From: Candidatus Poseidoniaceae archaeon
GTDB taxonomy: Archaea; Thermoplasmatota; Poseidoniia; Poseidoniales; Poseidoniaceae
Reading direction: 5' to 3'
Length of the DNA stretch: 64,000 nt
Assembly: GCA_949372645.1 (NCBI GenBank)
Contig: CASIAP010000001.1
Coordinates: forward strand, 17,802-81,801
In this document: positions 2,042-61,493 of the stretch, piece after piece
How positions within the stretch are numbered: position 1 is the first letter of the stretch
How the letters are laid out: each line of letters opens with the position of its first letter
Position numbers and translations under genes: made by a program
The notes under the pieces: generated by a model
Seen by the model: only the letters and a program-made list of their open reading frames with translations
What the model was told of the DNA's origin: nothing
Databases searched by the model: none

Positions 2042-3109
2042 ATGCGTGCTCTCATTAGGCTGTGCATGGCCACAGTCATGTCCTTGTTCGGTACATCCGA
2101 GTGGCTGCTGTTTGGGCTTTGGGTGGCCGCTATTGTTTGGCCGATAACCTATGCCATTCGGCATCGAACCTCATTAGCGCTGTCAATCACGGTTGGACTG
2201 CTTTTGGGATATTTGGTTCAGGTTCTTGGTCAGTTTGCATTTACCAATGGTTGGATTGATGGATGGCTTTGGTGGGATTATGTCTTGATTCCGAATCGAA
2301 TCAGTGGAGTTGCTTGGTTCCATACTTTCTTTTCTGCTGGATTTTTGCACAGTCCATCGAATGCATCTCACGTACTGGGTAATATTCTGGTTATTGCTTT
2401 GGTTGGTGTTCCGCTGGAACAGCGGCTTGGTACCCGTCGATTTGTTCTTGTCTATGCCCTCGGGTTATTCGGAGGTTCCTTTGCTTGGTTTTTGTTCAAT
2501 TTGACCTCTGGAAACCCCTCTTTGGGTGCTTCTGGTGCGGCGTTTGGACTGTTTGGCGCATACCTGGCAGGATGGCCTAAGGATGAGATACCTTTTCCGC
2601 TCATTTTAATACGCAAATGGCCTGTATTTTACCTTGCTTTGTTTTATTTTGCGATGGAGGTTTTCCGAGCCTATACGACACTTGGTCTCAACCAAGCTAG
2701 TGACGTAGCCCATATGGCGCACTTAGGCGGCTTTTTAGCGACCTATCTGTTACTCCCATTGATCGCTAAAAATGGACCTTATCCACTCGGTATCGAAGAC
2801 GGTGGACCGACCTCATCCAGCGGTGAACGTTCACGATTGAATCAAATTCGAAGTGTCATGGTTGACATGTCCAACGTCGTAGATCCTTGGACTGCACGTG
2901 ATATGGCGATTCCACGTTCTATCCGGGACCCTTTACGTAGCCTTTTGGCTTCTTCAGATGAACCGGAGACACGTTTGGCTTGGATGGAACATCTTGCCGA
3001 TGCAGCAGAATGTCCTGAATGTCAAGCCCCTCTTGGTGTTGTAGAACGAGCATCGGGCCCTCAAATGCAATGTTCGATTGAACCCGAACATCTCAATTGG
3101 CCAGAATGA
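2042..3109 (+). CDS. Rhomboid family intramembrane serine protease
   Basis: Six to seven TM helices. Catalytic GASGAAFG (GxSG) motif and downstream His in AHLGGFL. C-terminal soluble extension with CPEC...C. The start may be an internal Met (MATVMSLFG). Confidence 0.75.
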   Translation: MRALIRLCMATVMSLFGTSEWLLFGLWVAAIVWPITYAIRHRTSLALSITVGLLLGYLVQVLGQFAFTNGWIDGWLWWDYVLIPNRISGVAWFHTFFSAGFLHSPSNASHVLGNILVIALVGVPLEQRLGTRRFVLVYALGLFGGSFAWFLFNLTSGNPSLGASGAAFGLFGAYLAGWPKDEIPFPLILIRKWPVFYLALFYFAMEVFRAYTTLGLNQASDVAHMAHLGGFLATYLLLPLIAKNGPYPLGIEDGGPTSSSGERSRLNQIRSVMVDMSNVVDPWTARDMAIPRSIRDPLRSLLASSDEPETRLAWMEHLADAAECPECQAPLGVVERASGPQMQCSIEPEHLNWPE

Positions 3110-6200: not shown

Positions 6201-8147
6201 CAAAGCACCGGAGGATTCAGCGAAATAGGTCTTGAACTTGGCCATGCAAAATATCAAGTTACCTTAGAAGGTAATGGGGTTGAACCGGAATTTAGCATTC
6301 ACTACTTTACCGTGGTCATTGATGATGTGATACTTGGTTCTCAGGTGAGTATATCTCTGAGTTCAGGTGAAGTTCCAATTGATTTCATTGGTTTGGAGGA
6401 CGGTGGCCTTTTGTTCACCACTCGTGATGGAGAACTTCATGTTCGAACTACAACAGCTTCAATGGTAATGCAGGTTGATGTCATGCTTGAGCAAAAGTGG
6501 GGCGGTCAACTTACCACATACTTGCGAGATGATGGTTTGGTTCAAGCAGCATGGAATCGAAAGACCATCAGTCCAGATGGCTATACACTCACTGATATTG
6601 CGATGACTTCACTCACTCGTTTAGGTGAGAAAACTCCAGTCCATCATCAGATGCCTGCGATTAAATTATCTGAGGGGTCTTATTGGGGACTTGCGTTAGC
6701 AGAACATGATGATAAAATGATTTTAGCAGGATATCACCGAGATATTTCAACTGGAGGATCATGGCAAGACATCACTTCGATTTTCACCTTGGTATCATCG
6801 AATCCCGACAGTCAATCGTCTTGGAGTTCACCGAATATTGTGCTGTCGGATGTTCAAATACGTCCATCTCAAGGTGATGCTCTGGCAATCGGTTTGGGTG
6901 AAGAAAACTTACATATTCTCTATCAAGAAGAACGAAACGATGTCACTGGAATTGATCGTATTGGATTGATGTATACGCATGGTAATCCAGACTATGCCGC
7001 TTGGGGATTCCAGTCATCCATCGGTGATCACGCTCAGAAGGCGCAACTCGTTGTTCTTACAAACGGGAGTAAGGACGTCCTTGTTGCTTCTTGGATCGAA
7101 GGTCGTGGCAAAGATGCTATGGTCGCACACATTGTTACTGACAATGTATGGTCAGGTGAAGCAGAAAAAATAGGAGCACCTGGTGTGACGCATATCGAAT
7201 TGAATCCGACTTCCGATGGTGTTCAAATCTTCTACGATGAAATAAACGTATTTGGCCCAGTTACCCGATATGGCCTCTTATCTGATTCTTCACAAGGGCC
7301 AACCCTTGCTCTTTCAAACATTCTTACTGGAGGGTTTTTGAAAGGACATGCAGGAATGGAATTCGATGGAATTCTCCTACTTTCTTCTGCCAGCGGTTCA
7401 CTCAAAATGCGAACACTTGCTGATTTGGAAGGAGATTCCAAAGGACAAGACGAGTCAACATCCTTGCTCAATTCCCTGCTTGACCCTTTACCAGGGGATT
7501 ATGAAACGAAAGTATTGATTTTGGGTGTTGTATCTACTTTGTTCGTAGTGTTCCTTCTGATGATTGTTCATTCAGTTCGCTCATCTCGACGTCGTGAGGA
7601 GGAACTTGTCATTTTGGAATCAGGGCAAAACCAAGATGCAGATGCGTTAGAATTGCTTGTTGTTCCTGTCAAAGACGACGGACCACTGCTTGCCATCGAC
7701 ACGGAAACAGAAGATTTGGTCGTCGAGATGGATGACCAGTCAGTCTCGGCTATGTTGGATGATGAAGAATTGAGTTTGTCAGCCTCACTTGAAGCTAAAA
7801 ACGAATCCGGTGAAGGTAACTCCCGTCTCAATCGCCGTATGCAGCGAAAGCAACAGCGTGAGATTACTGAGATGGTTCAATCGATGAACACCTCACTTCC
7901 ACCACTTCCGGCTCTTCCTCTCACTGCTCCTGAACCAGCCCCATTGATTGCAGATTTAGCCGCTTTACCATTAATCCCACTTCCTGATGGGAGTCTACCA
8001 CCTCTTCTCGGGTTGCCACCTCTACCAATGATTCAGCCTCCTCAACGAGATGTGACGTGCCATGAATGTGCAGCTAAATTCACTGTGAAAGACATGACGC
8101 TCACCCGTGTGAGCTGTCCGATTTGTTCTGTGAAGGTTGATTGCTGA
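3201..8147 (+). CDS. Giant membrane-anchored subtilisin-like serine protease (peptidase S8) with C-terminal TM helix and cytoplasmic tail
   Basis: GTG start. Signal peptide ISLFLVIVFLFADLGVLA. S8 catalytic triad motifs DTGVDNEHESL, HGTHVAGS and GTSMATPIASG. A CARDB-like beta-sandwich motif (FTVGNAGDLDA). TM helix ILGVVSTLFVVFLLMIV followed by RSSRRRE. About 190 aa proline-rich tail ending in CHEC...CPIC. Confidence 0.85.
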   Translation: MGGLQSSSSWKSQRISLFLVIVFLFADLGVLANESETNVSESLSQPLFSEPILVEGLPPLMCGEELCLRPIRDIDRGDRVSAEAVQWWQSYGPDLDWNGMDDRLQRVLAGEESVSPTALIGPDGRKTVAIVVDYAWRANDAEIETLRTVLDAHGWVGEEGGAWFQQLIDIDSVAIDKVPVSALMDLYSLYGVVVIEMQNLMIPFNDVAAKASRARPSDVYSATAYERDYIGEGIVIAVLDTGVDNEHESLNDFDDESDEPDEDPLSYNDHKWVAGYDATSSASNPDGSQDPDDGNGHGTHVAGSAVGTGDSSRIHMGTAPGAYLVDIKVLTDAGGTNSQASLNGIQWLINNQDTNWGHNSSTRGIQVASMSFGSASTPLNPEDQGDNGSGSEARLVNDAVNASIVCVVAMGNDGTNRVPSPASADNAISIGAATDRGSINRTNDNVADYSNTGPRLDDEDDDEWDELKPDITSYGSSIMSATAQTGTSFPGQPAKPLAGSDYDEKDGTSMATPIASGIVALMLQADPSLEPQEVKDILRNSSEQRGSVSEPGISDRWNDEWGFGLIDASCAIDMVLEKACTPLEDGGDIPPPPTGNGSGDHVDMSKPNNGSWWIEGNFVRIAGNTQANEDGDEYTKVQIRIMQYLESGTVRELQSWIDTGGEVSSWFLDVSVKESWIRQDEDYVLILARALTDEGDESAIDARQVNLARMAVTIAGPPLGTAIQGSVDFSGTVEGVQHDLLEYRVDNGDWLVGEELTSMEVGSQDWSFSWNSNSVDDGSHRFSFRMVNESGVMTDDVRRTYSVDNQPAAPDFMFQGSVEIMDQALPVFSAVAGTVLEVDFTVGNAGDLDANDVFVQLEATGSQSATYPREYRISTLNEGESHQVTLYWWATEPGTHDVTISIDPNNQLGDPNPSNNVYTFSFEVEERPVEAMLRFLPGSVTTNPKVPLPGSNFDIDIRIDNLGQTEATQLTMRLARWNGGWVEVGVSNILIVPGSDSSSGQSTGGFSEIGLELGHAKYQVTLEGNGVEPEFSIHYFTVVIDDVILGSQVSISLSSGEVPIDFIGLEDGGLLFTTRDGELHVRTTTASMVMQVDVMLEQKWGGQLTTYLRDDGLVQAAWNRKTISPDGYTLTDIAMTSLTRLGEKTPVHHQMPAIKLSEGSYWGLALAEHDDKMILAGYHRDISTGGSWQDITSIFTLVSSNPDSQSSWSSPNIVLSDVQIRPSQGDALAIGLGEENLHILYQEERNDVTGIDRIGLMYTHGNPDYAAWGFQSSIGDHAQKAQLVVLTNGSKDVLVASWIEGRGKDAMVAHIVTDNVWSGEAEKIGAPGVTHIELNPTSDGVQIFYDEINVFGPVTRYGLLSDSSQGPTLALSNILTGGFLKGHAGMEFDGILLLSSASGSLKMRTLADLEGDSKGQDESTSLLNSLLDPLPGDYETKVLILGVVSTLFVVFLLMIVHSVRSSRRREEELVILESGQNQDADALELLVVPVKDDGPLLAIDTETEDLVVEMDDQSVSAMLDDEELSLSASLEAKNESGEGNSRLNRRMQRKQQREITEMVQSMNTSLPPLPALPLTAPEPAPLIADLAALPLIPLPDGSLPPLLGLPPLPMIQPPQRDVTCHECAAKFTVKDMTLTRVSCPICSVKVDC

Positions 8148-9980: not shown

Positions 9981-10751
9981 TCACAAAATTGAGAACCGTT
10001 GTTCCTCTTCTTTCCAATTGAACGGCTTGTAACCAAGTCGATGGTTGGTATGTCGCATCTTGACAACGCCCATCTTTCGAGCGACATCATCACCCGATCG
10101 CTCCATGACCAAATGAATCACGCCATCTGCAAGATAGTCTTCAACACCGTATTCACCGAATTGTTTGTTATCTTCACCAGTCATCTCACAGATGAAGAAC
10201 GAGGTCAGTCCAAGACGTCGAACGGCTTCAAAGAGTCTGAAGATCTCATCTCGAGGGTTTTCCATCTTCGTGAGTGTGAAGAAAGCACCGAGTGAATCGA
10301 AAACAAGTAATTCAAAACCGATTGAATCCCGGTATGAAGTAAGTTGTTTGATGAGTTGACCCATCCAGTCGACCCGGCTACTCATGCCTTGTTCATCAAG
10401 TTGAACACGCAAATCGGAAAGATCGATAATCGCAATTCGGTTACTCACTCGCTTATCATCAATGTTCATTCCCATGTTCGACATGTGCGATCGAAGTGAA
10501 TCCTTTCCTTGTTCAAGTGTGACATATATCCCACTCGTTTCGCCATAAAGCACTGCATTGTATAGCATTGAAAAAGTAAGACTGGACTTCATTGCACCCG
10601 ATGCCCCAGCTACAATACAAATGTGTCCTTCTGGAATCCCACCTTGCATATTTTCGTCTAATCCTTCAATATGCGTTGGTATTCTTGTTACTCCACTCAT
10701 GCCGGCACCATGTTGGGGTATACGCTTTGATTCTTCAACCTCACCCTTCAT
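9981..10751 (-). CDS. KaiC-like / RecA-superfamily ATPase (COG0467 family) with degenerate Walker A
   Basis: IPTHIEGLDENMQGGIPEGHICIVAGASGAMKSS matches the KaiC/RadA-like N-terminus. Walker B LLVFDSLGAF. C-terminal VVKMRHTNH matches the family KMRGsxH motif. Walker A reads GASGAMKS instead of GxxGxGK[ST]. Confidence 0.6.
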   Translation of the reverse strand: MKGEVEESKRIPQHGAGMSGVTRIPTHIEGLDENMQGGIPEGHICIVAGASGAMKSSLTFSMLYNAVLYGETSGIYVTLEQGKDSLRSHMSNMGMNIDDKRVSNRIAIIDLSDLRVQLDEQGMSSRVDWMGQLIKQLTSYRDSIGFELLVFDSLGAFFTLTKMENPRDEIFRLFEAVRRLGLTSFFICEMTGEDNKQFGEYGVEDYLADGVIHLVMERSGDDVARKMGVVKMRHTNHRLGYKPFNWKEEEQRFSIL

Positions 10752-10826: not shown

Positions 10827-11396
10827 GTGAACGTTTGGCTAGCATCACAATCTCCTCGTAGAGCAGCAATGCTTTCTCCACTTTTCACAGATCTCAAATG
10901 TGAAGGTTTTACTGATGTTGATGAAACTCCAACGCCTGGTAGCGTTGCCGCTCAAGTGTTGTCTATTTGTCAAAAAAAGTCTGAAGCAGTGCCTGATGGG
11001 CATGGCTTTGACCTTGTCATCGTTTGCGATACCTTACTTGCCGATCCAGATGATATGGATTCAACACTTGGAAAACCGAATGATGCAGTTGAAGCAGCCA
11101 TGATGTTACATCGACTCTCGGGGAGGCGACATCAAGTTTGGTCTGCTACCGGAATTCTTCTGCACGGTTCGTGGAAATTTTACGTTGAACATGCGATTGT
11201 CGAATTTCAGGCACTTACCGATGAACAATTGGTTGAGTTGGTCTTGAGTGAATCTTGGAAAGGAAAAGCAGGTGGTTATGATTTGGCAGGGCCCATGGGT
11301 GACTATGCTCGTCTCATTGACGGTCACGAATCAACGGTACTTGGAATCGCAGGAGAGGCAATGGAACTTTTCCGCACGTTCTCACTCGGGCATTAA
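10827..11396 (+). CDS. maf: Maf-like nucleoside triphosphate pyrophosphatase
   Basis: N-terminal LASQSPRRAAML Maf signature. 189 aa. Confidence 0.75.
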   Translation: MNVWLASQSPRRAAMLSPLFTDLKCEGFTDVDETPTPGSVAAQVLSICQKKSEAVPDGHGFDLVIVCDTLLADPDDMDSTLGKPNDAVEAAMMLHRLSGRRHQVWSATGILLHGSWKFYVEHAIVEFQALTDEQLVELVLSESWKGKAGGYDLAGPMGDYARLIDGHESTVLGIAGEAMELFRTFSLGH

Positions 11397-12002: not shown

Positions 12003-15000
12003 AAATCGAGGTCATCAAGGAAACCTGACATATCTGTACTTGCAGAGGCGCTTGGAGTATTGTTAGTTGTCGGCTGTGCTGGGCTCTGTTGACCCATTTG
12101 TGCAGCAAGATACTGTTCACCGTAATGTTGCCATTGTTCCATGGTCCATCCATCCGGTAGTCCCGAAGACGGGAGGGCTGGACCGGTATGAACAGCTACG
12201 GGTTGAACTGATTGCTGGACTGTAGGTTCTGCAAATGCGCTCATTGCCGCCAAAGTATCAGCTGGTGAAGTGGCAGGTGCAGGTGCAGGTTGAGCATAGG
12301 GGTCGGCAGCAGGTGCAGGTTGAGCATAGGGGTCGGCAGCAGGTGCAGGTTGTGCATACATATCGTGTTGCGGTTGAGCAGCGGGTTGTGCATACATATC
12401 GTGTTGCGGTTGAGCAGCAGGTTCATTCATTGCATATGAAGGCTGAGCAGCCATTGTCGGTTCAATCGATGGAATGTCTCCAAATGCAGAATATTTCTCA
12501 TCCTCATCTTTGCCCCTCCCTCGGGTAAGTAAGAGGAACCCTGCGAGAATTACGACGATACCGGCAAGACTGACAATGATAGCGGTTGGAACGGACCCAA
12601 TTGTCGCACTAATGCTTTCAAAAATCCCCTCAGCAGGTTTTTCTGCAACGGTAAGGGTGATACTCGTAGTCGAAAACTCTCCGTCATCATCCGTGGCAGT
12701 GAGTGTAACTTCCCATTGTCCCGGTTTAAGGTCAGTGAGCGTATATTTTGCTCCAGTGTAATCAATCTCTCCAGTGAAATCTCCATCGAGGTTACTGTCA
12801 ATCAGATCACTGTCCCAATCGTATTGCAAAGTGAGTTTGTCACCTATGGTTTCTCGCGAATCTAATCCTGAAAGCGTGATGTTATCACCTTCCATGAGTT
12901 CAAACACATTGCTTGAATTGGTGATGGCTGCAGCTGGTGCGAGGTTTTGAACACTGATATTGACTGAAGTCATCGCTTGTGCTCCGTCATCATCGGTGAC
13001 CGTGGCTGTAATTTGACGTATTCCTCGTGTAGACCAGGCAGTGGTCAATTCCATGCCTTGTGCTTCACAATCATTGACAAAGTTTCCATCATTGTTGCCG
13101 TCGACCAATACATCGGTATCCCAGCACACTTCCAAACTGTCAAGGTCTGATGCAGTATCTGAGACTTGAACGCTCAAAGTGAGTTCATCGTCTTCAAATA
13201 TTGGAATAGTGGACCCAAGTCCAGTTATTGTTGGTGCAACATTCATGATATTGACCAGGGCTGTTCGAACTTCTGAGCGCGCCCCATCGTTGTCATAGGC
13301 CGATACTTGAATGGTTTGAAGACCAGCATTCGGCCATGAAACTGTTGCTGTTGAAGAGGGACCTTTGGTCGTTTCTGTCCAATTCGGTTCTAAATCTGAA
13401 GGCTTCCATTCAATGTTGATATCATCGCGGTCTGACAGTGTATCGCCTCCCACAATCCGTAGTAGAGCAACTTGATCTTCATCCAATTCCCATACACCCA
13501 TTGAATCTACAGTCAAATTGGTTCCACCATACCAGAGTTCAGGATATGCCAAGGTTGGTGCAATATTCAAGACATTCAAACTTGTAGTGATGGTTGTTGT
13601 ATCTCCATCATCATCGGTTGCTAGGGCAGTAATGTCGAGAGGACCTTCTCCCATCGGTGTAAAGGTGCATGTAGGTTGAGTCAATCCTTCTTGACAATTA
13701 AGGCCAGGCCAAGTGATGCTGACCTGCTGACCAGGAGGCGAAATACTGTCGATGTCGCCACTGTCCGTAGCATCGAGAGTAATTTCCGATTCAACATCAA
13801 TACTCTCGACCATACTGAGATTCAGATAAGGTGCTCGATTGAGGACTGTGACGTTCATTTCGAGAATATCTTCATCGAGTTCTTCATCATATACGATGAC
13901 CTTGACCATCCACTCACCATCATCGCTCCAATTCCATTGCGTTATACAATTTGGTGCATCAAGAACTTCAATGAGTCCAGGTTTGGACTCAAGTTCAAAT
14001 CGGCAATCAACATCTCCACCATCTTCATCGAAACTCCCTGATGCGTTAAGAATCACATTCTCAAAGGTATATTTTCCTTCATCAAAAGTAAAGACTCCAG
14101 TTGGTGCACGACCGATGAAAATATCGATACTTGCTTCATTGTTGGTTCGATTCGCATCTTCAGTGACCAATTCATCAGGGTCGACGGTGAACGAAAGAGT
14201 CTGGTCGCCGATAGCTGCATTAGCAGGAACTGTCCAGTTGACCGTAATACGTTGTTCACTGTACGATGGAATAGAAGGAACCGATTCACGAATACTTACC
14301 CCATCTGGAGTTATCACTTCGATTTCTGTCGCTGGAGAAGCTAAGACTCCTCGGTTTTGTGCAGGGATGGAGAAGGAAAGCATATCGCCAGGTAATGCCC
14401 CGTATCCAATCGCTTGGTTCAAAATGACCTCATCAGTACCTCGATATCGTGTTACAATAATTGAATCGCTTTGAGCAACCAAATCAATTGCAACCACATT
14501 GAGGTCGATGACAACCGTTGCAGCGCCGATGATCTCTGTTAGAGGGTCCCAGACAATGATCCCATTACTCGAGTAATCATCGCTCGAAGGGGTATTGTCC
14601 ATTCCATTGGTGACATTGAGTGTATACTCAAGCATCCCTGAACCATCAGTCGTTGGACTGGCAAGAAGATTTGTTGACTCATATCGTACTTGCATGTTCT
14701 TATTGCCTTGAGGTTGGGCACCTGGTGAGGTTTCATAGATGACTGAAACAGTTTGCTCGGAATTCGGGAGCGTAGCCAAGAATTGCAGGTCTACGTCGAC
14801 GACAACATTTCGAGCGCCAGGATTTGAAGTGGCTTGAACGCCCCATGAATCAGCAGGTGAATATGATTTTAGTAACCAATCGATGGTGAATCCGGCAGCG
14901 TTCGAGATGCGTATCCATGAATTGAAACGGACAGCAGGGCAATACCAGTTGAATCCCGCTGAAACACCCGTCTCGTTCCACTCATTGATTTTGTATGAAT

Positions 15001-15800: not shown

Positions 15801-17681
15801 TCAAGGGTGTGAAGATTGAGCCTCGGTATATTGATGGCCATAATGTGACCATTGCTCCTGAGTCCAACCCTCGGGCAATCCTCCTTCTGGCAGAGGTAAG
15901 CCTTCAGATTCAATCACCGGTTCTACAGATGTTGCGATTGGTTCAGTATCCTCTTCAGGTTCTGAGAGTGTGGTTTCTTGAGGCACGTCAAAGGTGGTCG
16001 TGAACATTTGGTTGGAAGGAGGTGCCTTAGGGCGGCGTGATTGTGCTTCATCGACCAATGATTGTTTTTCAAATACCTGTTCTGACAGGTCTTCTCCTTC
16101 AAGTCCACCTTGTTGCCAAGCCTCATCATCCGGATTCGCTTTTTTCCGACGTGTAATTAATGCGAGAAGAATCAAGGTGAGCAACAAGAGTCCGATTTGT
16201 GCTAAAGGATTAGCTTCATCTCCAATCAACGCTGCACCGAATTCTTCGATTGTAGTTCGCTCAGGTGGAGCAACCTCGACGACCATCGTCGACTGGCCAG
16301 GTCGCTCAGGATTTTCATCCCATGCCATTGCTTTAACACGAACAGTTCCAGCCTTGAGGAACCGATGGATGACGGTTGAACCAACCAAATCAGCATCGTT
16401 GTCTTTAATTCCATCACCGTTGCTATCAACTGTGATATCTAAGTCCCACACAATGGTTAGCCCCTCCAAGTCATTCAGAGAGTCAATGGTTTGCTCTGCA
16501 CTCAGTACGCAGTCTCTGTATGCAATACAGTCGATGTTTTTCAAACGAACAATCGGTGGCATATTGAGTACTTCAATTACGAGTACTTCACTTGATTGTG
16601 CTCCATCATCATCGGTGACATGATAGATGATGGTGTGAGTACCACTTCGATTCCACGCATATTCGAGAATATCTCCTTTGATGTCACAATCATCATCGGC
16701 TCCACCAAGGTCATCACTGTCGATCCCTGGGTCGATATCCCAACATTTGACTAAGGATTCAATATCACTTTGGGTGTCAGTAGAATTCCCTTCAATGGTA
16801 ATACTTTGACCTTCAGCTATCGGTAAAAGAGAGACCAGCGGTTCGATAACAGGAGGGACATTTCGAATGTTAATCCATCGTTCTTCAACAAGACTTGCTT
16901 CACCATCTGAGTCGCTAACTTCCAAACGAATGGTATGAAGACCAGCGGTATCCCATTGCATTGGGAAGGTTGAGGTGCGTCCTGAAAAGGAATACATGAG
17001 GGAAGGCTGCTGGCCATCAGGCCACCAGGTATGCGTTAAGCCTTCGAGGTCATCAATCGAATCAAGAGCTTGACCCTTGACCACAATGCTTTCATCCTCA
17101 TCTAATTGCCAGATCTGTTGTTCATCACTTTGGATAAATTGATTGTTCTTCTGTAATGCGATGGACGCACTGTGTGGGGCGATATTGGTGAAACGAATGT
17201 CGAATGTAGCGGCAGTCGTTTCATAATCATCATCGGTGGCAACCGCAGTGAAGGTATGCCAACCTTCAGTCGGTGCAGTTGTTGTGCAAACTCGAGTATA
17301 GTAGCCTTCCTTGCACAAGGCATCTGGCCAATGAACATCGACAACACCAGGCCAAACCTCTTCAGAATCTGAATCATTAGCAAATGCATAGAGTGTGATT
17401 GGATGCTCAACCTTCGCTTCATTACGAGCGCTCATGATACCGATTTGTGGATGTCTGTTTCCAATTGATACCAACATGGTCGCCTTCTGTTCATCACGTT
17501 CTTCATCAATCACCGTTACTTCTACGGGGTAATTGCCATCATCCATCCATGTCCAATTGACTAAACAGGATGGAGAAGTAATCTTTTGCCACGCCCAGTT
17601 ACGTGAACCATCATCATACGGGATGTTAAAGAGGCAAGACACCTCACCACCATCGGCGTCAAAACTCTCCATCTGCAACAA
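15801..17681 (-). CDS. Surface protein B, C-terminal segment: PKD-like repeats, TM anchor, cytoplasmic tail ending LPEGWTQEQWSHYGHQY
   Basis: The ORF opens with TTG. SFDADGGEVSC aligns with SFDEDGGDVDC of protein A directly after the frame break. TM helix LLLLTLILLALI followed by TRRKKANPDDE. Confidence 0.55.
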   Translation of the reverse strand: MLQMESFDADGGEVSCLFNIPYDDGSRNWAWQKITSPSCLVNWTWMDDGNYPVEVTVIDEERDEQKATMLVSIGNRHPQIGIMSARNEAKVEHPITLYAFANDSDSEEVWPGVVDVHWPDALCKEGYYTRVCTTTAPTEGWHTFTAVATDDDYETTAATFDIRFTNIAPHSASIALQKNNQFIQSDEQQIWQLDEDESIVVKGQALDSIDDLEGLTHTWWPDGQQPSLMYSFSGRTSTFPMQWDTAGLHTIRLEVSDSDGEASLVEERWINIRNVPPVIEPLVSLLPIAEGQSITIEGNSTDTQSDIESLVKCWDIDPGIDSDDLGGADDDCDIKGDILEYAWNRSGTHTIIYHVTDDDGAQSSEVLVIEVLNMPPIVRLKNIDCIAYRDCVLSAEQTIDSLNDLEGLTIVWDLDITVDSNGDGIKDNDADLVGSTVIHRFLKAGTVRVKAMAWDENPERPGQSTMVVEVAPPERTTIEEFGAALIGDEANPLAQIGLLLLTLILLALITRRKKANPDDEAWQQGGLEGEDLSEQVFEKQSLVDEAQSRRPKAPPSNQMFTTTFDVPQETTLSEPEEDTEPIATSVEPVIESEGLPLPEGGLPEGWTQEQWSHYGHQYTEAQSSHP

Positions 17682-27825: not shown

Positions 27826-30573
27826 TCACTCTTCTTCATCTGAAGTTGGTGGACTCATTTTCATTGGTGGTAGGGCAGGAACAAATCCAGCAACGTTTCC
27901 ATCAAGCAGAGTTGCTCCATCCAATGCGTCATCATCCCACATTTTTTCAATTAATGCCCCTTGATTCAAATTGAGTTCATCCTTTTTGCCTCTCGATGCG
28001 AACAGCAAGCCTCCAGCGAGGAAAATGACAGCGGCAAAGAGAAGATATTTTGCTCTGTTTTCTGGGCTGTCTGAAGAACTTGAATCTGCATCACTGGTGC
28101 CTTGATCTTTATCAATACATTCTCCCGAAAAAGTATACGTGAGAGAAGGACAATCATTATCTGTACCGCCAGTTGTATCTGTACCGCCAGTTGTATCAGT
28201 GCCGCCAGTTGTATCAGTGCCGCCAGTTGTATCTGTACCGCCAGTTGTATCTGTACCGCCAGTTGTATCTGTACCGCCGGTGTTGTCATTACCACCAGTG
28301 TTGTCATTACCACCAGTATTGGATGAGTCTGTAGTCAAGTCAACATTGGCACCGGTGCGGTCACCATCGGCATCCATTGAGATGTCATAGAAGGTATAAA
28401 GTTTCGAAAGGTCGATATGGGTGTTCGCCCAAGTTGAGCGGTTGATGACATCGAAGTATCGTTCATCACCAGTCGTGAAAATTGGGTCGACCGTTATGTT
28501 TCTGAGTTGCGAGACTCCCGTGTTTGCTGAATTCTTGCCGTCGAATGCCGTGTTAAGGTACGATTGAACTTCTGCATCAGTACTCCATGCCACACCTTCT
28601 GGTGCAGTCCAGTGTTCACGGATATCGGAGACATCGTTTCGCATAGCCATTGCCATACCAGCTTCAATCTCTACCCAAGTTTGTGAGCCATCGACAACAG
28701 TCGTAGAAGTGATGTCAAGTGCTTTTGAAACACCACCGCCAGTAATTGGTTCCCAGTCATCACCCTTGAGCGCAGTCATGATGTCTTGGTCACCAAACAG
28801 TGCCTTTCCGTTCACGACAGTGAGGCGAACATCAGCATCAATAGCCTCAATGAGATTTCGATACGGATCGTCGTGGAAGGTATCAATGACCACGAGGTCT
28901 GCTACCATTCCAGTTTTGATTTTCCCAACATAATCTTGCCATTGAGCAGCAGCGGCAGGGTTTGATGTGACCATTTCCACCATTTGATAATTGGTGAAAT
29001 ACGATTCCATGATCTCACTGTTCCAAAGGTCGGCAGTCTTGAGTTCATGCAAATTATTTTTCGAACCACTTGGACCCCAATCAGGTGCTAAAGATATTTT
29101 GATGCCAGCCTTGTCAGCTGCACGTACATCGGTTGTGTTTCCATAAAGCAGGAGATTGGAGAGTGGTGACCACACCAATTTAGAGCCAACAGCACCCATT
29201 GATTCAAATTGTGATGGCGTAAGTGCTGTACCGTGAATTATAACAGTAGGTTCAGCGAGAAGACCCTTGGTTTTGAGTAAATCAAATTCATTCCTGCTGG
29301 TTTGGTCAACACCTTCTGACAAGTGTATGTACCATGCTTCAATATCACCATCATTGAAATCAGCAATTTTGCCATCGGAATTATAATCCGATTCATACCA
29401 TGAACATACTGCGCAAGTGACGCCTTTCTCTTTTCCAAAATTATACAATTCTACGTTTCGTGAAAGAGTGCTATCCCATGCGTCATTGCCGGATGGGGAA
29501 CCCTGAACTGCAGTGACACCGCCCGAAATTGCTTGGACTTCGGCGTACTTCATTTGTTCAGTTGCCAAGCCCCATTGACTGTTCGATTGAACGTTGTTTT
29601 TCATCCAAGTGATGCTCGGTTGGTAGTCGTAGTTGTTCCCCCACTGACCACGATTGGTGTAGCCGCCTTCGGCTGATCTTTGAGATTCAGAGAGGTGAAC
29701 ATCAAAATCCCACAGAGGAATGTGATTGTAGTGCATGTGGTTGTGCAAGTCAATCAGTCCAGGATAAATTGTGCCGTTGGTTTCTATGACGACAGCATTG
29801 GTTAAATCAGCAGTAAATGGTATTGAAGAACTGGATGACCAAACTGCATCAATCATGCCGTCTCGAACCAAAACATTGCCTTGGTTTAAGACGCTGTTTT
29901 CGCCTTCCATGGTGACGACTCGACCCTTGAGGAGGTATGCATCAGATGAGGAGGTATCAGCTACTTTGAAACATTTCACGATGTTGAGGGCAACACTTGA
30001 GTCCGGGTCGTTTGGGCCCCAACCTGGTGAAGGGTCTACTTCAACAGCATTACCGGATGAGTCAATCACAATGGAATTGCCGTAAAATCCGAATTCCTTA
30101 GGAATTGTCATAGAGTTCGAAATGCTATTCGATGTGTCAGTAACCGTGACTGTTTCCATTTCAAAATAGCTCAATATAATATCTGAATCAGCGCTAAAGA
30201 CAGCTATTCTTTGGTCCGGTTCCATCACCGTATTCCAAGCAAGTTGGCAAGGTGGACTGCCGGACGAGGAGCTGAGTACCCAATCCGAAACATTGACTGG
30301 AAAAGAACCAGTGTTCCATAATTCGATGAATTGGTCCGAATACTTACCGTAATCACCGTCGTTGTTCCAATCGACTGCATTGTATATGTTCGTATTAGTT
30401 GCATTCGATTTCAACTGGTTTGGGCTTCTGAAAAGTTCGGATACTACGATTGTTGAATCACGGGCACTCACTTCTGAACTCTCATTGAATTCATACGGGT
30501 CAGGATTCGATGGAATCAACGGTGCAAGAAACAGAACGAGGACTAGAAGTGTCGTCAGTTGGGCGAGGCGCAT
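27826..30573 (-). CDS. Membrane-anchored extracellular amidohydrolase-family protein with (TTGGTD)n linker, C-terminal TM and short cytoplasmic tail
   Basis: Signal peptide starts at MRLAQLTTLLVLVLFLAPLIPS; the ORF track extends to 30684. Metal-dependent amidohydrolase motif IDLHNHMHYNH. Thr/Gly repeat. TM helix YLLFAAVIFLAGGLLFA followed by SRGKKDE. Confidence 0.6.
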   Translation of the reverse strand: MRLAQLTTLLVLVLFLAPLIPSNPDPYEFNESSEVSARDSTIVVSELFRSPNQLKSNATNTNIYNAVDWNNDGDYGKYSDQFIELWNTGSFPVNVSDWVLSSSSGSPPCQLAWNTVMEPDQRIAVFSADSDIILSYFEMETVTVTDTSNSISNSMTIPKEFGFYGNSIVIDSSGNAVEVDPSPGWGPNDPDSSVALNIVKCFKVADTSSSDAYLLKGRVVTMEGENSVLNQGNVLVRDGMIDAVWSSSSSIPFTADLTNAVVIETNGTIYPGLIDLHNHMHYNHIPLWDFDVHLSESQRSAEGGYTNRGQWGNNYDYQPSITWMKNNVQSNSQWGLATEQMKYAEVQAISGGVTAVQGSPSGNDAWDSTLSRNVELYNFGKEKGVTCAVCSWYESDYNSDGKIADFNDGDIEAWYIHLSEGVDQTSRNEFDLLKTKGLLAEPTVIIHGTALTPSQFESMGAVGSKLVWSPLSNLLLYGNTTDVRAADKAGIKISLAPDWGPSGSKNNLHELKTADLWNSEIMESYFTNYQMVEMVTSNPAAAAQWQDYVGKIKTGMVADLVVIDTFHDDPYRNLIEAIDADVRLTVVNGKALFGDQDIMTALKGDDWEPITGGGVSKALDITSTTVVDGSQTWVEIEAGMAMAMRNDVSDIREHWTAPEGVAWSTDAEVQSYLNTAFDGKNSANTGVSQLRNITVDPIFTTGDERYFDVINRSTWANTHIDLSKLYTFYDISMDADGDRTGANVDLTTDSSNTGGNDNTGGNDNTGGTDTTGGTDTTGGTDTTGGTDTTGGTDTTGGTDTTGGTDNDCPSLTYTFSGECIDKDQGTSDADSSSSDSPENRAKYLLFAAVIFLAGGLLFASRGKKDELNLNQGALIEKMWDDDALDGATLLDGNVAGFVPALPPMKMSPPTSDEEE
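28139..28330. repeat. 15-nt tandem repeat (about 10-12 units, ccgccagttgtatc[ta]gta) encoding TGGTD/TGGND linker
   Basis: Direct reading of the sequence. In-frame on the minus strand within the amidohydrolase gene. Two 3' units are variant (ccaccagtgttgtcatta). Confidence 0.85.
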
Positions 30574-30663
30574 GATGTGGCCTTTGGCAGTGAGCACATG
30601 AACTCGTCGCTTTGACAACCTCGAACGGACATGTTGAAGTATCGCCGATTTTGAAACGATTTC

Positions 30664-31044
30664 ATGGCCTCCGTGGAGATTCATGAACCCGAGTTTTCCG
30701 ACATCATCGATAACAATTCAATCGTGCTCCTTGACTTTTGGGCCGAGTGGTGTGGGCCATGCAAAGCCTACGGGCCGGTTTATGAACGGGTTTCAGAAGA
30801 ATTCCCAGATGTCGTCTTTGGAAAAATCGATACCGAAGCAGAACCTATGTTAGCCAAATCTTTCAATGTACGCTCGATTCCTACGACTGTTGCATTCAAA
30901 GATGGCATCGGTGTTTTCATGCAACCAGGTGCACTCCCTGAAGATGCACTTCGTGATTTGGTTGCGAAACTTACTGAATTGGATATGGATGAAGTTCGAG
31001 CCGAAATGGAAACTCAAAAAGCGGCTCAAGAAGAGAAAGAATGA
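30664..31044 (+). CDS. trxA: Thioredoxin
   Basis: WAEWCGPCK active site. 126 aa. Acidic C-terminal extension. Confidence 0.8.
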   Translation: MASVEIHEPEFSDIIDNNSIVLLDFWAEWCGPCKAYGPVYERVSEEFPDVVFGKIDTEAEPMLAKSFNVRSIPTTVAFKDGIGVFMQPGALPEDALRDLVAKLTELDMDEVRAEMETQKAAQEEKE

Positions 31045-42900: not shown

Positions 42901-45065
42901 CCGATCAGCCAATTCTCCCTCAAAATATTCAGGCCATGGTCTGGAGAGAATGGATTGATGATGATAATTTTAATCATTGGCCAGATGAAAATGAATACCA
43001 TCCTCTTAACCTGTTTATTCCAAATGACCTTTCCTCACTTATCGGTCAATATACCTTGATGATGGATGATACTGGAGGAAGTATCGGTCAGAAAGTTTCA
43101 GTTTACCTGACCGGTACCGATCAGGCAGGTCATACACTGGAGAACGGTGGTACCAATGTTTCCGGTGAACATCTGTTTATGTATCAATTAGCAACAGACG
43201 GCCCTCCAGCAGTTACTGCGAATGCATTCTCCATTGATGGCGGCAAAAAGCCTTGGTTACATCCACAGACACCCTATACCTTTGAAGTTGATATTTCCGA
43301 ACCAAACGGTGGTTCTGACTTCTCTACCGTTGTCGTTGAATTAGCATCCAATCAAGGCAGTGATTCACTTCCAATCCTATGGGACTTCCTGACTGGTAAT
43401 TGCACAACAACAAGCCCCCATGTCTTGATTGAAGAGTGTGAAATGCGAGGGGCGAATGGCCCTGCTGACCCCTATGAACGGGATATGACTCTACATATCG
43501 AAGTGAAATTAGCATGGACCACTCCGGACTTGGGTGAAACTCGAAGAGAACCTGGAATCAGAGTGATTGATAGAGCAGGTCAAGAAGTCTTCCTTGCTTT
43601 CCCTGAACATCGCTGGCGCTTCTCTGCAGCAATGGAAGTTCCTGACGAAAGTGTAAATCTTATACTCTCCCAAGGGACTTTACTTGAGGACGGTGCTCGC
43701 TTAGCACCCAACAGTCCATTGGAAGTCTCTGGAAGTATTGTCTTCTCAGAAACAGGACTTACCCCTCAATTTGATTGCCAAGTTGATATTTTATTCGCCG
43801 GCTCAACGACATCAACCAGTACGCTTGAAGGAATTTGGTCAGTCGCTTTACAAGCACCCTCCTCAACGATGACAATACCGATGACTTGGAGCGTCGGATG
43901 CCTTCAAGGACAAGGCATTGATGCAACGAATCAAGAAACCTCAGTTCGTTGGATTATTGTCGATGGGACAGGTCCAGAACCCGTTGAAGTTTCGAACCCT
44001 CGCCCTGCCTCTGTTTTGAAAGCGGAATCACATGAAGTTCGTATTCTTCTTTCTGAAGCAGGTGGCTTAGATGTTGATTCACTTGAATTAGTTTGGTGGG
44101 TCGAAGAGAAAGCTACAGGTGACCGCTTGCGGAACGGAATTGAACCGCTCACCTTGATCGGCTCAGATCTCTCCGGATTACGTTTGGAAGTCGTCAGCTC
44201 AATTGATTTGAGCGAGATTACGCCTGAAATGTTAGAAAATCGTCTTGCTGTTCACATTTTGGTCACTGGAAGAGATCTGGCTGACAATGAAGTGCTCGGA
44301 CTGGGCGGATCTCCTGCTGGAACTCCTGTTGGCGTTTGGGATATGGTTTGGCTCAAACCGGAATATACACTACAAGGCTCTTCGATCACTTATTCTCGTT
44401 TACTGGTTGAAGTTGGCCAAACTTCCATTGTGACAGCCTATGTTGAAAACACAGGAACCCTCAACGGTTCAGTTAGTGTGATCTTTACCGAAGTGCTTGG
44501 AGACGGGACTCGTTCGATGCTTCGTAGCATGACGGTTGAAGTTCCAGAAGGCGGTATTATACCTGTTTCTGCTGATTGGAATCCCTCCGGACCTGGTTTG
44601 CAGTGGGTCGAAGTTCTGTTAGAAACCGGTTCGACTTCTATTGGCCCATCGATTGATGTCCGACCGCAACGTGAAGAATCTTTTTCGGAGAGTGTCTTTG
44701 GTGGTGTGAATCCCGTCTTGGGAACTTTTGCAGCAATTCTCTTCCTCTCTATTGTCCTTACAGGTTTGGTTTGGGCAAGACGTATGACCTTGAACCGTGG
44801 CTCGAAATATGAAGATAATTGGGATGAATATTCATCTGAATTTGAAGAGGATGAAGATGAATACGACGATGAAGGCGATGAGATGGACACATCTCTCTCG
44901 ACCTCTTCTGTTGCCGCAGTCTCAGTTACTGCGGTGGAGACATCAGTATCGGATGAAGAAACAGATTGGGTCATGGGTTCCGATGGCTACTGGTGGTATC
45001 ATGATAAAGTTACCAATGAATGGTGGTACAAGAATGCTGAAGGCGAAATTGTACAACACAAGTGA
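39903..45065 (+). CDS. Giant surface protein (1720 aa): signal peptide, many N-glycosylation sequons, CARDB-like module, C-terminal TM anchor, acidic cytoplasmic tail ending in a WW-like domain
   Basis: Signal peptide ALLLSLLMLFGGPLQT. TM helix LGTFAAILFLSIVLTGLVWA followed by RRMTLNRGSK. Tail ...DEDEYDDEGDE...TDWVMGSDGYWWYHDKVTNEWWYKN. Confidence 0.7.
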   Translation: MTGSSSRRGALLLSLLMLFGGPLQTMLTDGTSPSPNSVFLEEEETILFAGVGDDAIIQLPGSGSYSDSFTIEVPSNAPVTDLHLSMVPSVDITHQGFVWEDNAIWSHSSALNNGTFGQNNVLTGNGAGTLWDFNTNAAGWTFSNTYASRVTSPACGLNGTGTTGGSIRTYAGSTYATSPVNDFSGVSAMPLHVWVREGSSGCGEEPDTGEDLQIQYRTTSNTWTTLHTFSGAPTSSGSATQYMTNLPAAALHTNTQVRFHQTSGSGTCCDFWFIDDVHFATPPSAEWTSPTIGFATSSFQDVEQGPWAPVYINADVPSGASLNWTVIDTSTGLAIPGMKGSLTDQPLQTTDTAWIPLNALDWQTVTSIRLNLYFEPSANGQMASIHSISGDGSYALSFDNDPLLKGWTFKGTPLYDSFSTSVTGFENDSMTSPWFSASAALAEIHVDASTLFTQTQIRTSLHTNWTNITLPYSMSLLGSEGSVGSYQVQFVADANNTSNAWEVLEFKTGTFGGLQPTAPAIDFARDDALEWGGSDVRVGSWGWQDRFENGQNSIAANPGISGSSTVKAWIPATNLSSFCFSALSSNGNLASINLVHNGITVANWTVETGSSYFVLDQNQLTELNAALLGSTSLVSALGTYFTEVEFEVYGSGNVTLAGLGVPYEASDSLMAAVDSTFVLEMNGARYGLPALGGMHHIPLQLTSETAGGLHITLEGLNNSLSVQLVGVNMHTDATILTPSQRWQTMETNFLFADASPSTARLDVIGGGYSATWLLPLNGGTPVGTGDSALVELHPTAAVTSVESGTSLSMNITFRINPSWDDSDTIQVSSRLLLSNGVFSIPARYTWGGMGSQGFENDLEIKQVMFSDSSHTELDPSDYYLKAGSTIQIGVRIGFEGMDTLDAFADGDAVVEFYRGENLVANTTTLDGNMWNITDSVPFSFGIAVWHFEIKSINGSGTTPDAVFSRTFHIDSITPQVLDSNMERYDHRIPSSTQTIQIQISDQPILPQNIQAMVWREWIDDDNFNHWPDENEYHPLNLFIPNDLSSLIGQYTLMMDDTGGSIGQKVSVYLTGTDQAGHTLENGGTNVSGEHLFMYQLATDGPPAVTANAFSIDGGKKPWLHPQTPYTFEVDISEPNGGSDFSTVVVELASNQGSDSLPILWDFLTGNCTTTSPHVLIEECEMRGANGPADPYERDMTLHIEVKLAWTTPDLGETRREPGIRVIDRAGQEVFLAFPEHRWRFSAAMEVPDESVNLILSQGTLLEDGARLAPNSPLEVSGSIVFSETGLTPQFDCQVDILFAGSTTSTSTLEGIWSVALQAPSSTMTIPMTWSVGCLQGQGIDATNQETSVRWIIVDGTGPEPVEVSNPRPASVLKAESHEVRILLSEAGGLDVDSLELVWWVEEKATGDRLRNGIEPLTLIGSDLSGLRLEVVSSIDLSEITPEMLENRLAVHILVTGRDLADNEVLGLGGSPAGTPVGVWDMVWLKPEYTLQGSSITYSRLLVEVGQTSIVTAYVENTGTLNGSVSVIFTEVLGDGTRSMLRSMTVEVPEGGIIPVSADWNPSGPGLQWVEVLLETGSTSIGPSIDVRPQREESFSESVFGGVNPVLGTFAAILFLSIVLTGLVWARRMTLNRGSKYEDNWDEYSSEFEEDEDEYDDEGDEMDTSLSTSSVAAVSVTAVETSVSDEETDWVMGSDGYWWYHDKVTNEWWYKNAEGEIVQHK

Positions 45066-60400: not shown

Positions 60401-61493
60401 TTCTACTTCTTTAGAGAAGAACTCGAGTGAATTGCCTGAATTCCAAGCGGGCATGGATACCCCTCCAACTCCTCCTTCATCGGAAATCCCGCCTCTACCG
60501 CCTTCATCGCAAACCCCACCTCCGCTACCTCCATCGGCTGACTCACAGGCACATGATGAAGCAGCATCGCCTGCTCAGCCAGATGATGAAGCATCGCCTG
60601 CTATGACTGAAGAAGTAATGGCACTGTCTCAACAACTCGAGACGATGGTCATGGGCGTGGCCCAACAAGACACCAATTCATTAGCAGGTACTGAACTTGA
60701 AATTGGTGAAGCAAGACGATTCCTCCATTCGCATAAACTTCGACATGCAATGGCCAGTGTAGCCAAAGCTGAAGCATCACTCATTGAACTCGAAGAAGAT
60801 GTGTTGTATCTTCGACGTAACATTGCTATGTTACATCGCCTGTTAAACGAAAAGAAAGTGAGTGAACGAGATATCGAAACGATCCTTATTCGTCTTCGTA
60901 GCGCCACTGGTGCTGCTGAAATTGGAGATGTGGGTGGTGCAGCAGGAGAAGTTGAATTCCTCGTTGATGATTTGATTGGTGGAAACACATCGACGCTCAA
61001 TCCCTTTTTGTTCCGTCACTTTTGGATGGGCTTAGAAACACGATGGCCTGCTGGCGGTGACGAAGGAGTTCTTGTTGTCCGCATCATCAACGATGGGCCA
61101 GTGGCTATGCCGCCTATGCGTCTTGCTCCTCCCGTCCCTGAGGGTTGGACTTCTACCCCAACTTCAGTTGACCTTCCAACCATTGCACCAGGGGGAAATC
61201 TTCCTGTTCGGTTCAATGTGGCTACGAATCGACGCCAATCCACCGATGAAGTACCGCTCTCGCGTAAACTCGCCATTTCGACCGGTTATGAAATTCGAAC
61301 CGGTGAAGTCTTCCTTACCATTCGGGCTCAGAACCGCTCAATGGAGCCTATCTCGGATGTTCTCCTCTCACCATGGTTCCCACCCGGTTATACCTCTGAT
61401 ACGATTCCTTTTGTGGAGCGACTTGCTCCAGACGAAGTGGCCATCATTCGAATGCCACTTCGTATCAACATGAATTCAGGAGGTCATTCCTGA
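60387..61493 (+). CDS. Cytoplasmic proline-rich / coiled-coil protein with C-terminal beta-sandwich-like domain, encoded between the giant surface protein and the archaellin genes
   Basis: N-terminus TPPTPPSSEIPPLPPSSQTPPPLPPSAD. Predicted coiled coil (ALSQQLETMVMG...LYLRRNIAMLHRLLNEKK). No signal peptide or TM. The start overlaps the upstream gene by 14 nt. Confidence 0.5.
   Translation: MTMPDSTSLEKNSSELPEFQAGMDTPPTPPSSEIPPLPPSSQTPPPLPPSADSQAHDEAASPAQPDDEASPAMTEEVMALSQQLETMVMGVAQQDTNSLAGTELEIGEARRFLHSHKLRHAMASVAKAEASLIELEEDVLYLRRNIAMLHRLLNEKKVSERDIETILIRLRSATGAAEIGDVGGAAGEVEFLVDDLIGGNTSTLNPFLFRHFWMGLETRWPAGGDEGVLVVRIINDGPVAMPPMRLAPPVPEGWTSTPTSVDLPTIAPGGNLPVRFNVATNRRQSTDEVPLSRKLAISTGYEIRTGEVFLTIRAQNRSMEPISDVLLSPWFPPGYTSDTIPFVERLAPDEVAIIRMPLRINMNSGGHS

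Follow-up and report, generated by a model that had tools for sequence, protein, structure and literature searches.

Proline-rich ligands of eukaryotic proteins fall into several classes, among them PPLP (class II WW domains), φPxφP (SH3 domains, whose ligands also need a basic residue), [F/L]PPPP (EVH1 domains), and the FH1 tracts that bind profilin. Proline is also prominent in TonB-type spacers, which consist of EP/KP dipeptide repeats and in which composition is conserved. The nearest prokaryotic precedent for the reading of such sequences is Myxococcus GltJ, a switch built from a ZitP-like zinc ribbon in the cytoplasm, a flexible linker, and a GYF domain that binds a proline-rich sequence in AglZ (PMC11135422); in the GltJ/ZitP systems a dedicated domain reads the proline-rich sequence at micromolar affinity (PMC11135422, PMC5182065). 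Within the Archaea, a Heimdallarchaeal profilin has been reported to bind polyproline (PMC8410842). Finally, TRAP and AMA1 of the Apicomplexa are type-I surface proteins that have a conserved acidic cytoplasmic tail and are paired with a rhomboid protease (PMC3406075). Here we analyze a stretch of 64,000 nucleotides (hereafter, the window) from a Candidatus Poseidoniaceae archaeon, in which a membrane-anchored subtilase has a predicted cytoplasmic tail with repeated, conserved LPP[LP]P motifs that may dock a partner protein.

The Poseidoniales are uncultivated, are known from marine metagenomes, and are among the most abundant archaea of the surface ocean; to our knowledge, almost nothing is known of their cell biology because they are uncultivated. 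The window encodes archaellins (Pfam Arch_flagellin, E 4e-22) and a TATA-binding protein, has a G+C content of approximately 46%, and its proteins have homologs labeled Poseidoniales, Poseidoniaceae, or Thalassarchaeaceae, i.e. Marine Group II. Five large proteins in the window (the subtilase, protein A, its paralog protein B, an amidohydrolase, and a protein that we name 39903 after its start position; Table 1) are built in the same way, with an N-terminal signal, a long ectodomain, and a single transmembrane segment near the C-terminus; the tails that follow it are 56-192 residues long and open with basic residues. All five tails are predicted to be cytoplasmic because of their hydropathy and the positive-inside rule. 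An earlier reading of the letters of this DNA (the sequence-only reading) had proposed that PPLP and PY motifs in these tails, and in a cytoplasmic protein starting at 60387 (the 60387 protein), are ligands of WW-like elements in the same group of surface proteins.

Conserved proline motifs in the subtilase tail

The proline-rich peptide on which that proposal centered (TSLPPLPALPLTAPEPAPLIADLAALPLIPLPDGSLPPLLGLPPLPMIQPPQ, positions 7890-8045, + strand) does lie in frame within the subtilase open reading frame (ORF), and in a tail predicted to be cytoplasmic. The subtilase matches Pfam Peptidase_S8 (E 8e-50) and CARDB (E 1e-14), and has two hydrophobic segments, the N-terminal signal (residues 15-33) and the C-terminal anchor (residues 1438-1456). 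The sequence after the anchor is HSVRSSRRREEE, with a positive-inside flank, HSVRSSRRR, that can be read directly; it is because a transmembrane segment is followed by this basic stretch that the tail is predicted to be cytoplasmic. An AlphaFold2 (AF2) model of the tail contains, in order, a juxtamembrane helix, a disordered acidic region, a confidently predicted basic helix, an unstructured proline-rich segment, and a confidently predicted zinc ribbon. Over tail residues 110-155 the proline-rich segment has no secondary structure, and its predicted local distance difference test (pLDDT) score is 45-55.

When the C-terminal 549 residues were used as query, 49 Poseidoniales proteins were returned, and the architecture of the tail is retained in 40 orthologs that range from 97% down to 31% identity. 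The conserved order begins with a basic juxtamembrane stretch and an acidic one containing DDGPLLAIDTExEDLVV; the basic helix GEGNSRLxRRMKRKQQRE comes next, then the proline-rich segment, and last the zinc ribbon QRDVTCxECxAKFTVKDMTLxRVxCPICS. When 1.84 billion representatives were searched with a profile of the entire tail, only 83 proteins matched, nearly all of which are tails or tail fragments of the subtilase family; all matches of full subtilase length (1634-1686 residues) have an identical architecture. The idea that the module also occurs on other protein families was rejected, the profile matches elsewhere being a few weak, multi-stretch ones to unrelated zinc-ribbon repeat proteins. 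Judged by these searches, the tail module is limited to the Poseidoniales subtilase family.

In the window proteome (40 ORFs, 20,861 residues), PPLP is above expectation, with four copies against 0.24 expected from composition; the subtilase tail and the N-terminal part of the 60387 protein hold all four. Shuffling within segments gives, for the subtilase stretch, three LPPL against 0.39 (p=0.004) and two PPLP against 0.39 (p=0.046), and for the 60387 stretch two PPLP against 0.22 (p=0.009). These statistics of the window alone are suggestive, not decisive. Across the proline-rich segments of the 40 orthologs, LPPL is present 109 times against 6.0±2.3 in composition-preserving shuffles of each segment (maximum 16 in 2000 shuffles) and PPLP 77 times against 8.0±2.7, with GLPPLP and LPPLPG as the commonest hexamers. 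Among 81 distinct tails there are 152 copies of LPP[LP]P where shuffles give 5.9±2.4, an excess of approximately 25-fold, and at least one copy is found in 71 of the 81. The consensus is [G/E/D]-L-P-P-[L/P]-P, repeated one to six times per tail with freely evolving spacers between the copies; in distant members of the family LPPLP is replaced by [D/E/G]LPPPP[S/G/T]P, with the element itself retained. The PPLP part of the earlier proposal therefore stands, in that LPP[LP]P is enriched and conserved in the subtilase orthologs, whereas PPxY and LPxY are absent from all of the tails.

Comparison of the window with an 86%-identical relative (L002) reveals how the motif is maintained. The 15 motif codons contain 11 synonymous and no non-synonymous differences, whereas a 15-codon spacer between motifs has nine non-synonymous differences; the zinc ribbon has 18 synonymous and no non-synonymous differences. 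In addition, leucine codons differ among the motif copies, and Tandem Repeats Finder detects no DNA repeat in the subtilase proline segment. Because the motif changes only synonymously, uses mixed leucine codons, and lies outside any DNA repeat, selection at the protein level rather than recent slippage maintains it. The ortholog comparisons thus show the LPP[LP]P copies to be short linear motifs under purifying selection at the protein level, and not a by-product of composition or slippage; they present a core consensus in a disordered, predicted cytoplasmic segment and conservation beyond composition, as expected of proline-rich motifs of this class. A strict polyproline-II register of the leucines was rejected, the LPPL spacings being 6, 7, 8, and 9, with multiples of three in only 40 of 72.

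Our favored explanation, which we hold with about as much belief as doubt, is multivalent docking, in which a cytoplasmic partner would bind the subtilase LPP[LP]P copies in their polyproline-II form. The tail would present, in succession from the transmembrane anchor, an acidic region, a strongly basic helix, motif copies in an intrinsically disordered segment, and a zinc ribbon that may serve as a second contact. Motifs and ribbon together would then tie the surface protease to a cytoplasmic partner other than a canonical WW domain, for which the putative cytoplasmic CCCH domain of an adjacently encoded rhomboid protease is one candidate. Several points weigh against this explanation. Copy number (0-6) and segment length (41-86 residues) vary, one subclade has only degenerate LPxLP/LPPP, and a spacer role fits these facts as well. 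The orthologs share kinship, so that the shuffle statistics overstate independence, and the cytoplasmic side of the tail is itself a prediction. Moreover, the subtilase motif is degenerate at one locus (L110) where protein A keeps the GPPLP element described below, and co-variation of the two was rejected on this ground. Lastly, a scan of 38 window proteins for WW, SH3, GYF, EVH1, and profilin domains came up empty.

The spacer role just mentioned is a reading in its own right, in which the proline-rich segment would be a mere extended, semi-rigid polyproline-II rod, as in TonB, that distances the zinc ribbon from the membrane while the motif goes unread. The lack of secondary structure and the low model confidence over tail residues 110-155 agree with this idea, as do the wide variation in segment length and copy number and the fact that the zinc ribbon and basic helix are the most constrained parts of the tail. 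A spacer, however, predicts that composition is kept and not order, and neither the 25-fold excess of LPP[LP]P over shuffles nor the restriction of motif codons to synonymous change between freely changing spacers is what it would lead one to expect. The 10-15 exposed leucines would also be unusual in a soluble spacer. We therefore consider an unread spacer unlikely.

Table 1. Positions in the window of the surface-protein genes, their tail elements, and associated proline-rich features.
Feature	Position	Strand	Description
Rhomboid protease gene	2042..3109	+	Directly upstream of subtilase; Pfam Rhomboid E 5e-21
Membrane-anchored subtilase, 1648 aa	3201..8147	+	Tail-bearing surface protein; signal peptide, S8 peptidase, CARDB, large ectodomain, one C-terminal transmembrane segment, 192-aa tail
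Subtilase C-terminal transmembrane anchor, aa 1438-1456	7512..7568	+	Kyte-Doolittle mean 3.09
Subtilase basic tail helix NSRLNRRMQRKQQRE...	7818..7895	+	Invariant R86, R89, R90, R93 in ortholog alignment; AF2 helix, tail residues 84-109, pLDDT 82-95
Subtilase proline-rich segment	7896..8036	+	LPPLP 7896-7910, LPLIPLP 7965-7985, LPPLL 7995-8009, LPPLP 8013-8027
Subtilase C-terminal C4 zinc ribbon PPQRDVTCHECAAKFTVKDMTLTRVSCPICSVKVDC	8037..8144	+	Four invariant Cys; AF2 four strands, pLDDT 89-96
Protein A (PKD/CARDB)	11999-15745	-	Tail-bearing surface protein
Protein A tail module GPALPSSGLPDGWTMEQWQHYGEQYL	12107..12184	-	Family consensus GPP[LIV]PxxGLPxGWTMEQWx[HY]YGxQ[YW]L
Protein A QPQHDMYAQPAA / PAADPYAQPA repeats	12278..12412	-	Young DNA tandem repeats, not a conserved PY motif
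Protein B, paralog of A	15801-17681, split from 17659-19392	-	Tail-bearing surface protein
Protein B tail module GLPLPEGGLPEGWTQEQWSHYGHQYT	15825..15902	-	Same family as protein A module
Amidohydrolase	27826-30684	-	Tail-bearing surface protein
Amidohydrolase tail motif FVPALPPM	27862..27885	-	Consensus F[VI]P[AS][PL]PP + mostly hydrophobic residue
39903 protein, 1720 residues	39903-45065	+	Tail-bearing surface protein
39903 C-terminal 34-aa aromatic beta-meander ("WW-like" element)	44961..45062	+	AF2 four strands; tail without proline
60387 N-terminal proline tract TPPTPPSSEIPPLPPSSQTPPPLPPS	60459..60536	+	Lineage-specific low complexity

The zinc ribbon and the adjacent rhomboid protease

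The C-terminal ribbon of the subtilase has the CxxC-x(n)-CxxC pattern and two beta-hairpins of the MJ0042/ZitP type. Its match to Pfam Zn_ribbon_4 (PF13717) nevertheless scores only 12.7 bits (E 0.13), short of the family threshold of 30.3, and a Foldseek search of the tail model against the PDB yielded nothing at E<0.001, the generic zinc ribbons eS27, LysW, and ZitP (2nb9, E 4) being non-significant. These comparisons bear on the possibility that the tail is an intramolecular switch of the kind seen in Myxococcus GltJ, with the zinc ribbon docked on the LPPLP linker of the same chain and released when a partner takes its place. GltJ does have the same parts, and the ZitP-like ribbon in its cytoplasmic portion binds the flexible linker of the same protein (PMC11135422); the tail ribbon, moreover, has a weak fold likeness to ZitP 2nb9 (root-mean-square deviation 1.6 Å over 37 columns, E 4). 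On the other hand, the linker is modeled at low pLDDT and without secondary structure, the model gives no sign of a compact tail (predicted template-modeling score 0.23), similarity to the MJ0042/ZitP family is below every threshold, and the tail contains no GYF domain. Such a switch would seem very unlikely.

Docking to a separate partner remains the reading that we favor, and gene association provides a candidate. The rhomboid gene is immediately upstream of the subtilase in 8 of 8 loci (the window, L001, L002, L027, L028, L108, L109, and L110), including distant lineages with the LPPPP type of motif, and the two genes overlap by 10 nucleotides in L108. The rhomboid has a C-terminal extension of approximately 110 residues (2882-3106) with the conserved pattern DPW...DExETRxAW[ML][ED]...CPxC...C...H.xWP, including conserved Trp residues, which corresponds to no Pfam family. 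We take this CCCH extension to be cytoplasmic. The adjacency suggests a protease-substrate or protease-partner pair, and on this evidence the rhomboid would be a candidate partner, or sheddase, of the subtilase.

Aromatic tail elements and the search for a reader

Proteins A and B have in common a 26-residue module, GPP[LIV]PxxGLPxGW[T/S]MEQWx[H/Y]YGxQ[Y/W]L, which is the conserved part of their tails and is found in five syntenic genomes. A metagenome scan for this module yielded over 600 pattern matches, and 509 of them were confirmed; 112 distinct instances were compared. The scan patterns did not include the GPP positions, and yet positions -11 to -7 of the distinct instances are G (82%), P (93%), P (81%), [LIV] (100%), and P (100%); the window's own copies are degenerate (GPALP and GLPLP). 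GPPLP in proteins A and B is, on these counts, a conserved proline element that the sequence-only reading overlooked. Because the PPLP-like and Trp-rich elements adjoin within one 26-residue module, packing within one chain is suggested, and the proline element might lie against the Trp helix in the manner of the pancreatic-polypeptide fold. An arrangement of residues found in the A/B module, PPLP-x0-2-G-LP, recurs in 37 of the 81 subtilase tails. The signature of GYF domains is GPF-x4-M-x2-W-x3-GYF within a beta-beta-alpha-beta-beta fold. A GYF-like reading of the A/B module was rejected, only the spacing G-x6-M-x2-W-x3-G being common to both and neither GYF nor GYF_2 being matched in Pfam or the PDB at E<=10.

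The other aromatic element lies at the end of the 39903 protein. Its sequence, DWVMG[S/A]DGYWWYHDKxTNEWWYK[D/N]xxG[E/D]IV, hardly varies among the 77 distinct homolog tails in which it occurs, even though the ectodomains are only 45-50% identical; the tail (44772-45062, + strand) also keeps a nearly invariant juxtamembrane YDWDEYSSE, and the ectodomain is much less conserved than either element. AF2 places strands at tail residues 66-68, 74-78, 83-87, and 93-96 (pLDDT 81-87), giving four strands in place of the three antiparallel ones, in approximately 35 residues, of a WW domain. Foldseek comparison of this tail model with the PDB gives single propeller blades as the best matches (E>=0.4), with no WW domain in the top 50 and nothing at E<0.001, and a profile search of PDB sequences with the tail gives no WW domain, only chance laccase matches. 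For the A/B module, comparison with solved WW domains recovers only the 10-residue match at GLPEGW to the first strand (ITCH, E 0.65; Salvador, E 9). Pfam WW (PF00397) is not matched at E<=10 by any of the five tails or by the A/B module. The WW signature has two Trp residues 20-22 apart and a Pro two residues after the second. Expressed as W-x20-22-W-x2-P, it matches no tail but does match control sequences of YAP and Pin1; in the 39903 module the spacing is W-x17/18-WW, and Pro is lacking. That the 39903 tail or the GLPxGW module belongs to the WW family was accordingly rejected by hidden Markov model, signature, and fold. A WW-like mode of working, without membership of the family, is a separate matter; an exposed aromatic sheet or helix might still bind polyproline-II.

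In the model of the sequence-only reading, PPLP motifs would be bound by WW-like aromatic elements, here the 39903 beta-meander and the A/B helix GWTMEQW, and the surface proteins would cluster tail to tail. Both aromatic elements are extremely conserved, and the 39903 element is a small sheet in which 8 of 34 residues are aromatic; a sheet of this size could probably not enclose a core. At six loci one conserved cluster contains the subtilase, A, and B genes, and the A/B-type arrangement recurs in subtilase tails as described above. Set against this are the absence of any Pfam or PDB-profile WW match and of the WW signature, a predicted four-stranded fold that best resembles propeller blades, the presence of proline element and Trp helix in the same A/B module, which suggests in-chain packing, the lack of co-variation at L110, and the lack of PPxY. 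The model is thus very doubtful. A wider proposal is that, at the cytoplasmic side of their membrane, the Poseidoniales use an adaptor logic resembling that of eukaryotes. The GPPLPxxGLP of A/B would be packed in-chain on GWTMEQWxHYGxQYL as a mini-domain resembling the PP-fold or Trp-cage, and the "orphan" LPP[LP]P of the subtilase would engage aromatic surfaces of other molecules (A/B helices, the 39903 beta-meander, or the rhomboid CCCH domain), thereby clustering surface enzymes and adhesins or gating rhomboid shedding. We regard this proposal as distinctly unlikely.

The remaining proline-rich stretches

The other peptides cited in the sequence-only reading are all present in ORFs, although two of their nucleotide ranges were out of frame (corrected in Table 1 for the protein A repeats and the 60387 tract). 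They differ in their fate. The amidohydrolase motif F[VI]P[AS][PL]PP is found in 20 of 20 complete orthologous tails (59-90% identity), whereas the MSPP that had been quoted with it shows no conservation among them. These tails also keep a juxtamembrane DELNLNQEAxIEKMWDD and, in most cases, a C-terminal acidic run (typically SEEE).

The repeats of protein A, proposed as PY ligands of WW domains, consist of DPYAQP/DMYAQP units and are young tandem repeats. Tandem Repeats Finder reports 30 nucleotides x2.7 at 98% and 36 nucleotides x2.2 at 95%; there are four copies in the window against six in L002, and none in the orthologs of L001, L027, L028, and L110. Of 39 distinct A-type linkers, 33 lack PY. 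Where a Tyr element does recur, it is [D/Q]xYA[Q/P/A], in which x is P, M, I, T, or V, and this element is not a PY motif. A DNA tandem repeat, variable copy number, and loss in more distant orthologs together make up the full picture expected of slippage.

The proline-rich opening of the 60387 protein likewise cannot be upheld as a conserved ligand. Among 634 homologs, with a core 63-95% identical, the (TPPPPPSS)n/PPPLPP tract is present only in the closest orthologs (P0050-P0062, core identity at least 75%), and more distant ones (63-72% identical) have acidic, proline-poor N-termini. Tandem Repeats Finder detects no DNA repeat in this tract, so that loss in more distant orthologs is the one hallmark of slippage seen. 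By these comparisons, the PY/MY repeats of protein A and the 60387 tract are ordinary fast-evolving low-complexity sequence, and to that extent the refutation foreseen in the sequence-only reading, that proline stretches are unconserved linkers, holds. That all of the proline stretches are neutral, functionless products of slippage is nevertheless scarcely credible, since what is true of the protein A repeats (95-98% identical, variable in copy number) and of the 60387 tract (closest relatives only) fails for the amidohydrolase motif, the A/B GPPLP element, and the subtilase segment, for which it is refuted, since no DNA repeat is present there and the distribution of synonymous and non-synonymous differences speaks against it.

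Coupling of the tails to the archaellum had also been suggested, and no link was found beyond the adjacency of the 60387 gene. The start of this gene overlaps the end of a gene for a 1735-residue multi-pass membrane protein, and two archaellin genes are directly downstream. The highly conserved 60387 protein (60387-61493, + strand) is without a transmembrane segment, has a weak NEW3/CARDB-like domain, and gave no match to known archaellum components.

Gene neighborhood and other features

The order rhomboid, subtilase, GlmS, KaiC-like ATPase, Maf is kept in 8 of 8 loci, L110 having one extra gene between subtilase and GlmS. A small ORF, A, and B come next in six of the eight (the window, L001, L002, L027, L028, and L110). 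The KaiC-like ATPase (9981-10751, - strand), which is in the cluster at all eight loci, is a single-domain protein with weak similarity to ArlH (E 4e-15, below the cut-off).

In all lineages sampled, the C-terminus of A-type proteins is acidic-hydrophobic and almost invariant, LLDDLD[L/F] (12002-12022, - strand, in the window). The small conserved ORF (11382-11987, - strand) starts with M[AG][NS]LWQFFGLPDPEG and is located 4-11 nucleotides past the A-type stop codon in 35 of 42 A-type loci among L001-L107; given this spacing, it is likely to be co-translated with protein A. Its product lacks transmembrane segments and is matched neither in Pfam or NCBIfam nor in the PDB, and a likeness to SepF was rejected for want of support in the same three databases.

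Protein B is divided between two ORFs on the - strand that overlap by 23 nucleotides, one half holding the signal peptide and the other the transmembrane segment and tail. Orthologous genes elsewhere are called at about 1140-1170 residues, and the split is one of three things, namely a frameshift, an assembly error, or a pseudogene. The stalk of the amidohydrolase contains an 18-nucleotide tandem repeat (x6.7, 96% identity, 28158-28321, - strand), which encodes (TGGTD/TGGND)n just outside the membrane anchor. Elsewhere in the window, 47713-49122 (- strand) encodes an ELWxxDGT-repeat protein (NCBIfam TIGR04534, E 3e-23), and its neighbor (49071-49982) combines DUF7151 with collagen-like repeats.

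Discussion

Surface proteins of the Poseidoniales carry strongly conserved, predicted cytoplasmic tail elements that match no Pfam or NCBIfam family, namely (LPP[LP]P)n and zinc ribbon in the subtilase, GPPLP...GWTMEQW in proteins A and B, and an aromatic beta-meander in the 39903 protein. A search of the literature gave nothing relevant that ties Poseidoniales to proline-rich motifs, zinc ribbons, rhomboids, or LPPLP, and no description of the tail modules was found. These elements offer clonable handles on the positioning, clustering, or shedding of surface proteins. Even if the motifs should prove to be unread, the analysis separates conserved motifs from slippage-generated low complexity in such tails.

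Among described systems, the spacers of the TonB type resemble the subtilase tail in placing a proline-rich, extended segment between a membrane anchor and a small C-terminal domain, but differ in that the subtilase has a five-residue hydrophobic motif conserved in order. With TRAP and AMA1 it shares the combination of a type-I surface protein, which has a conserved, acidic, predicted cytoplasmic tail, and a rhomboid, here encoded by adjacent genes at all eight loci; this is analogy only, as the tails are not homologous. The likeness to GltJ and ZitP extends to a bitopic membrane protein with a small cytoplasmic CxxC...CxxC zinc ribbon and a long flexible linker. Those modules, however, are bacterial and N-terminal, whereas that of the subtilase is C-terminal, has the proline motifs in the linker itself, and lacks GYF; the similarity is non-significant in both sequence and fold.

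In comparison with the proline-motif systems of eukaryotes, the subtilase LPPLP fits both PPLP and φPxφP, distant orthologs have [D/E]LPPPP, and there are multiple conserved copies with variable spacers in a predicted disordered cytoplasmic segment. The differences are that no reader domain is seen among the 38 window proteins, that the motif flanks are G/E/D rather than basic, and that the host is not an Asgard archaeon. The motif core alone, as far as its sequence goes, does not tell which class of reader would be concerned. The Heimdallarchaeal profilin shows that polyproline is read within the Archaea, although in an Asgard lineage and in connection with actin. If a partner does read the subtilase motifs, the tail would be a rare instance of proline-motif/reader signaling in a non-Asgard archaeon, and would bear on how far such logic predates the eukaryotes.

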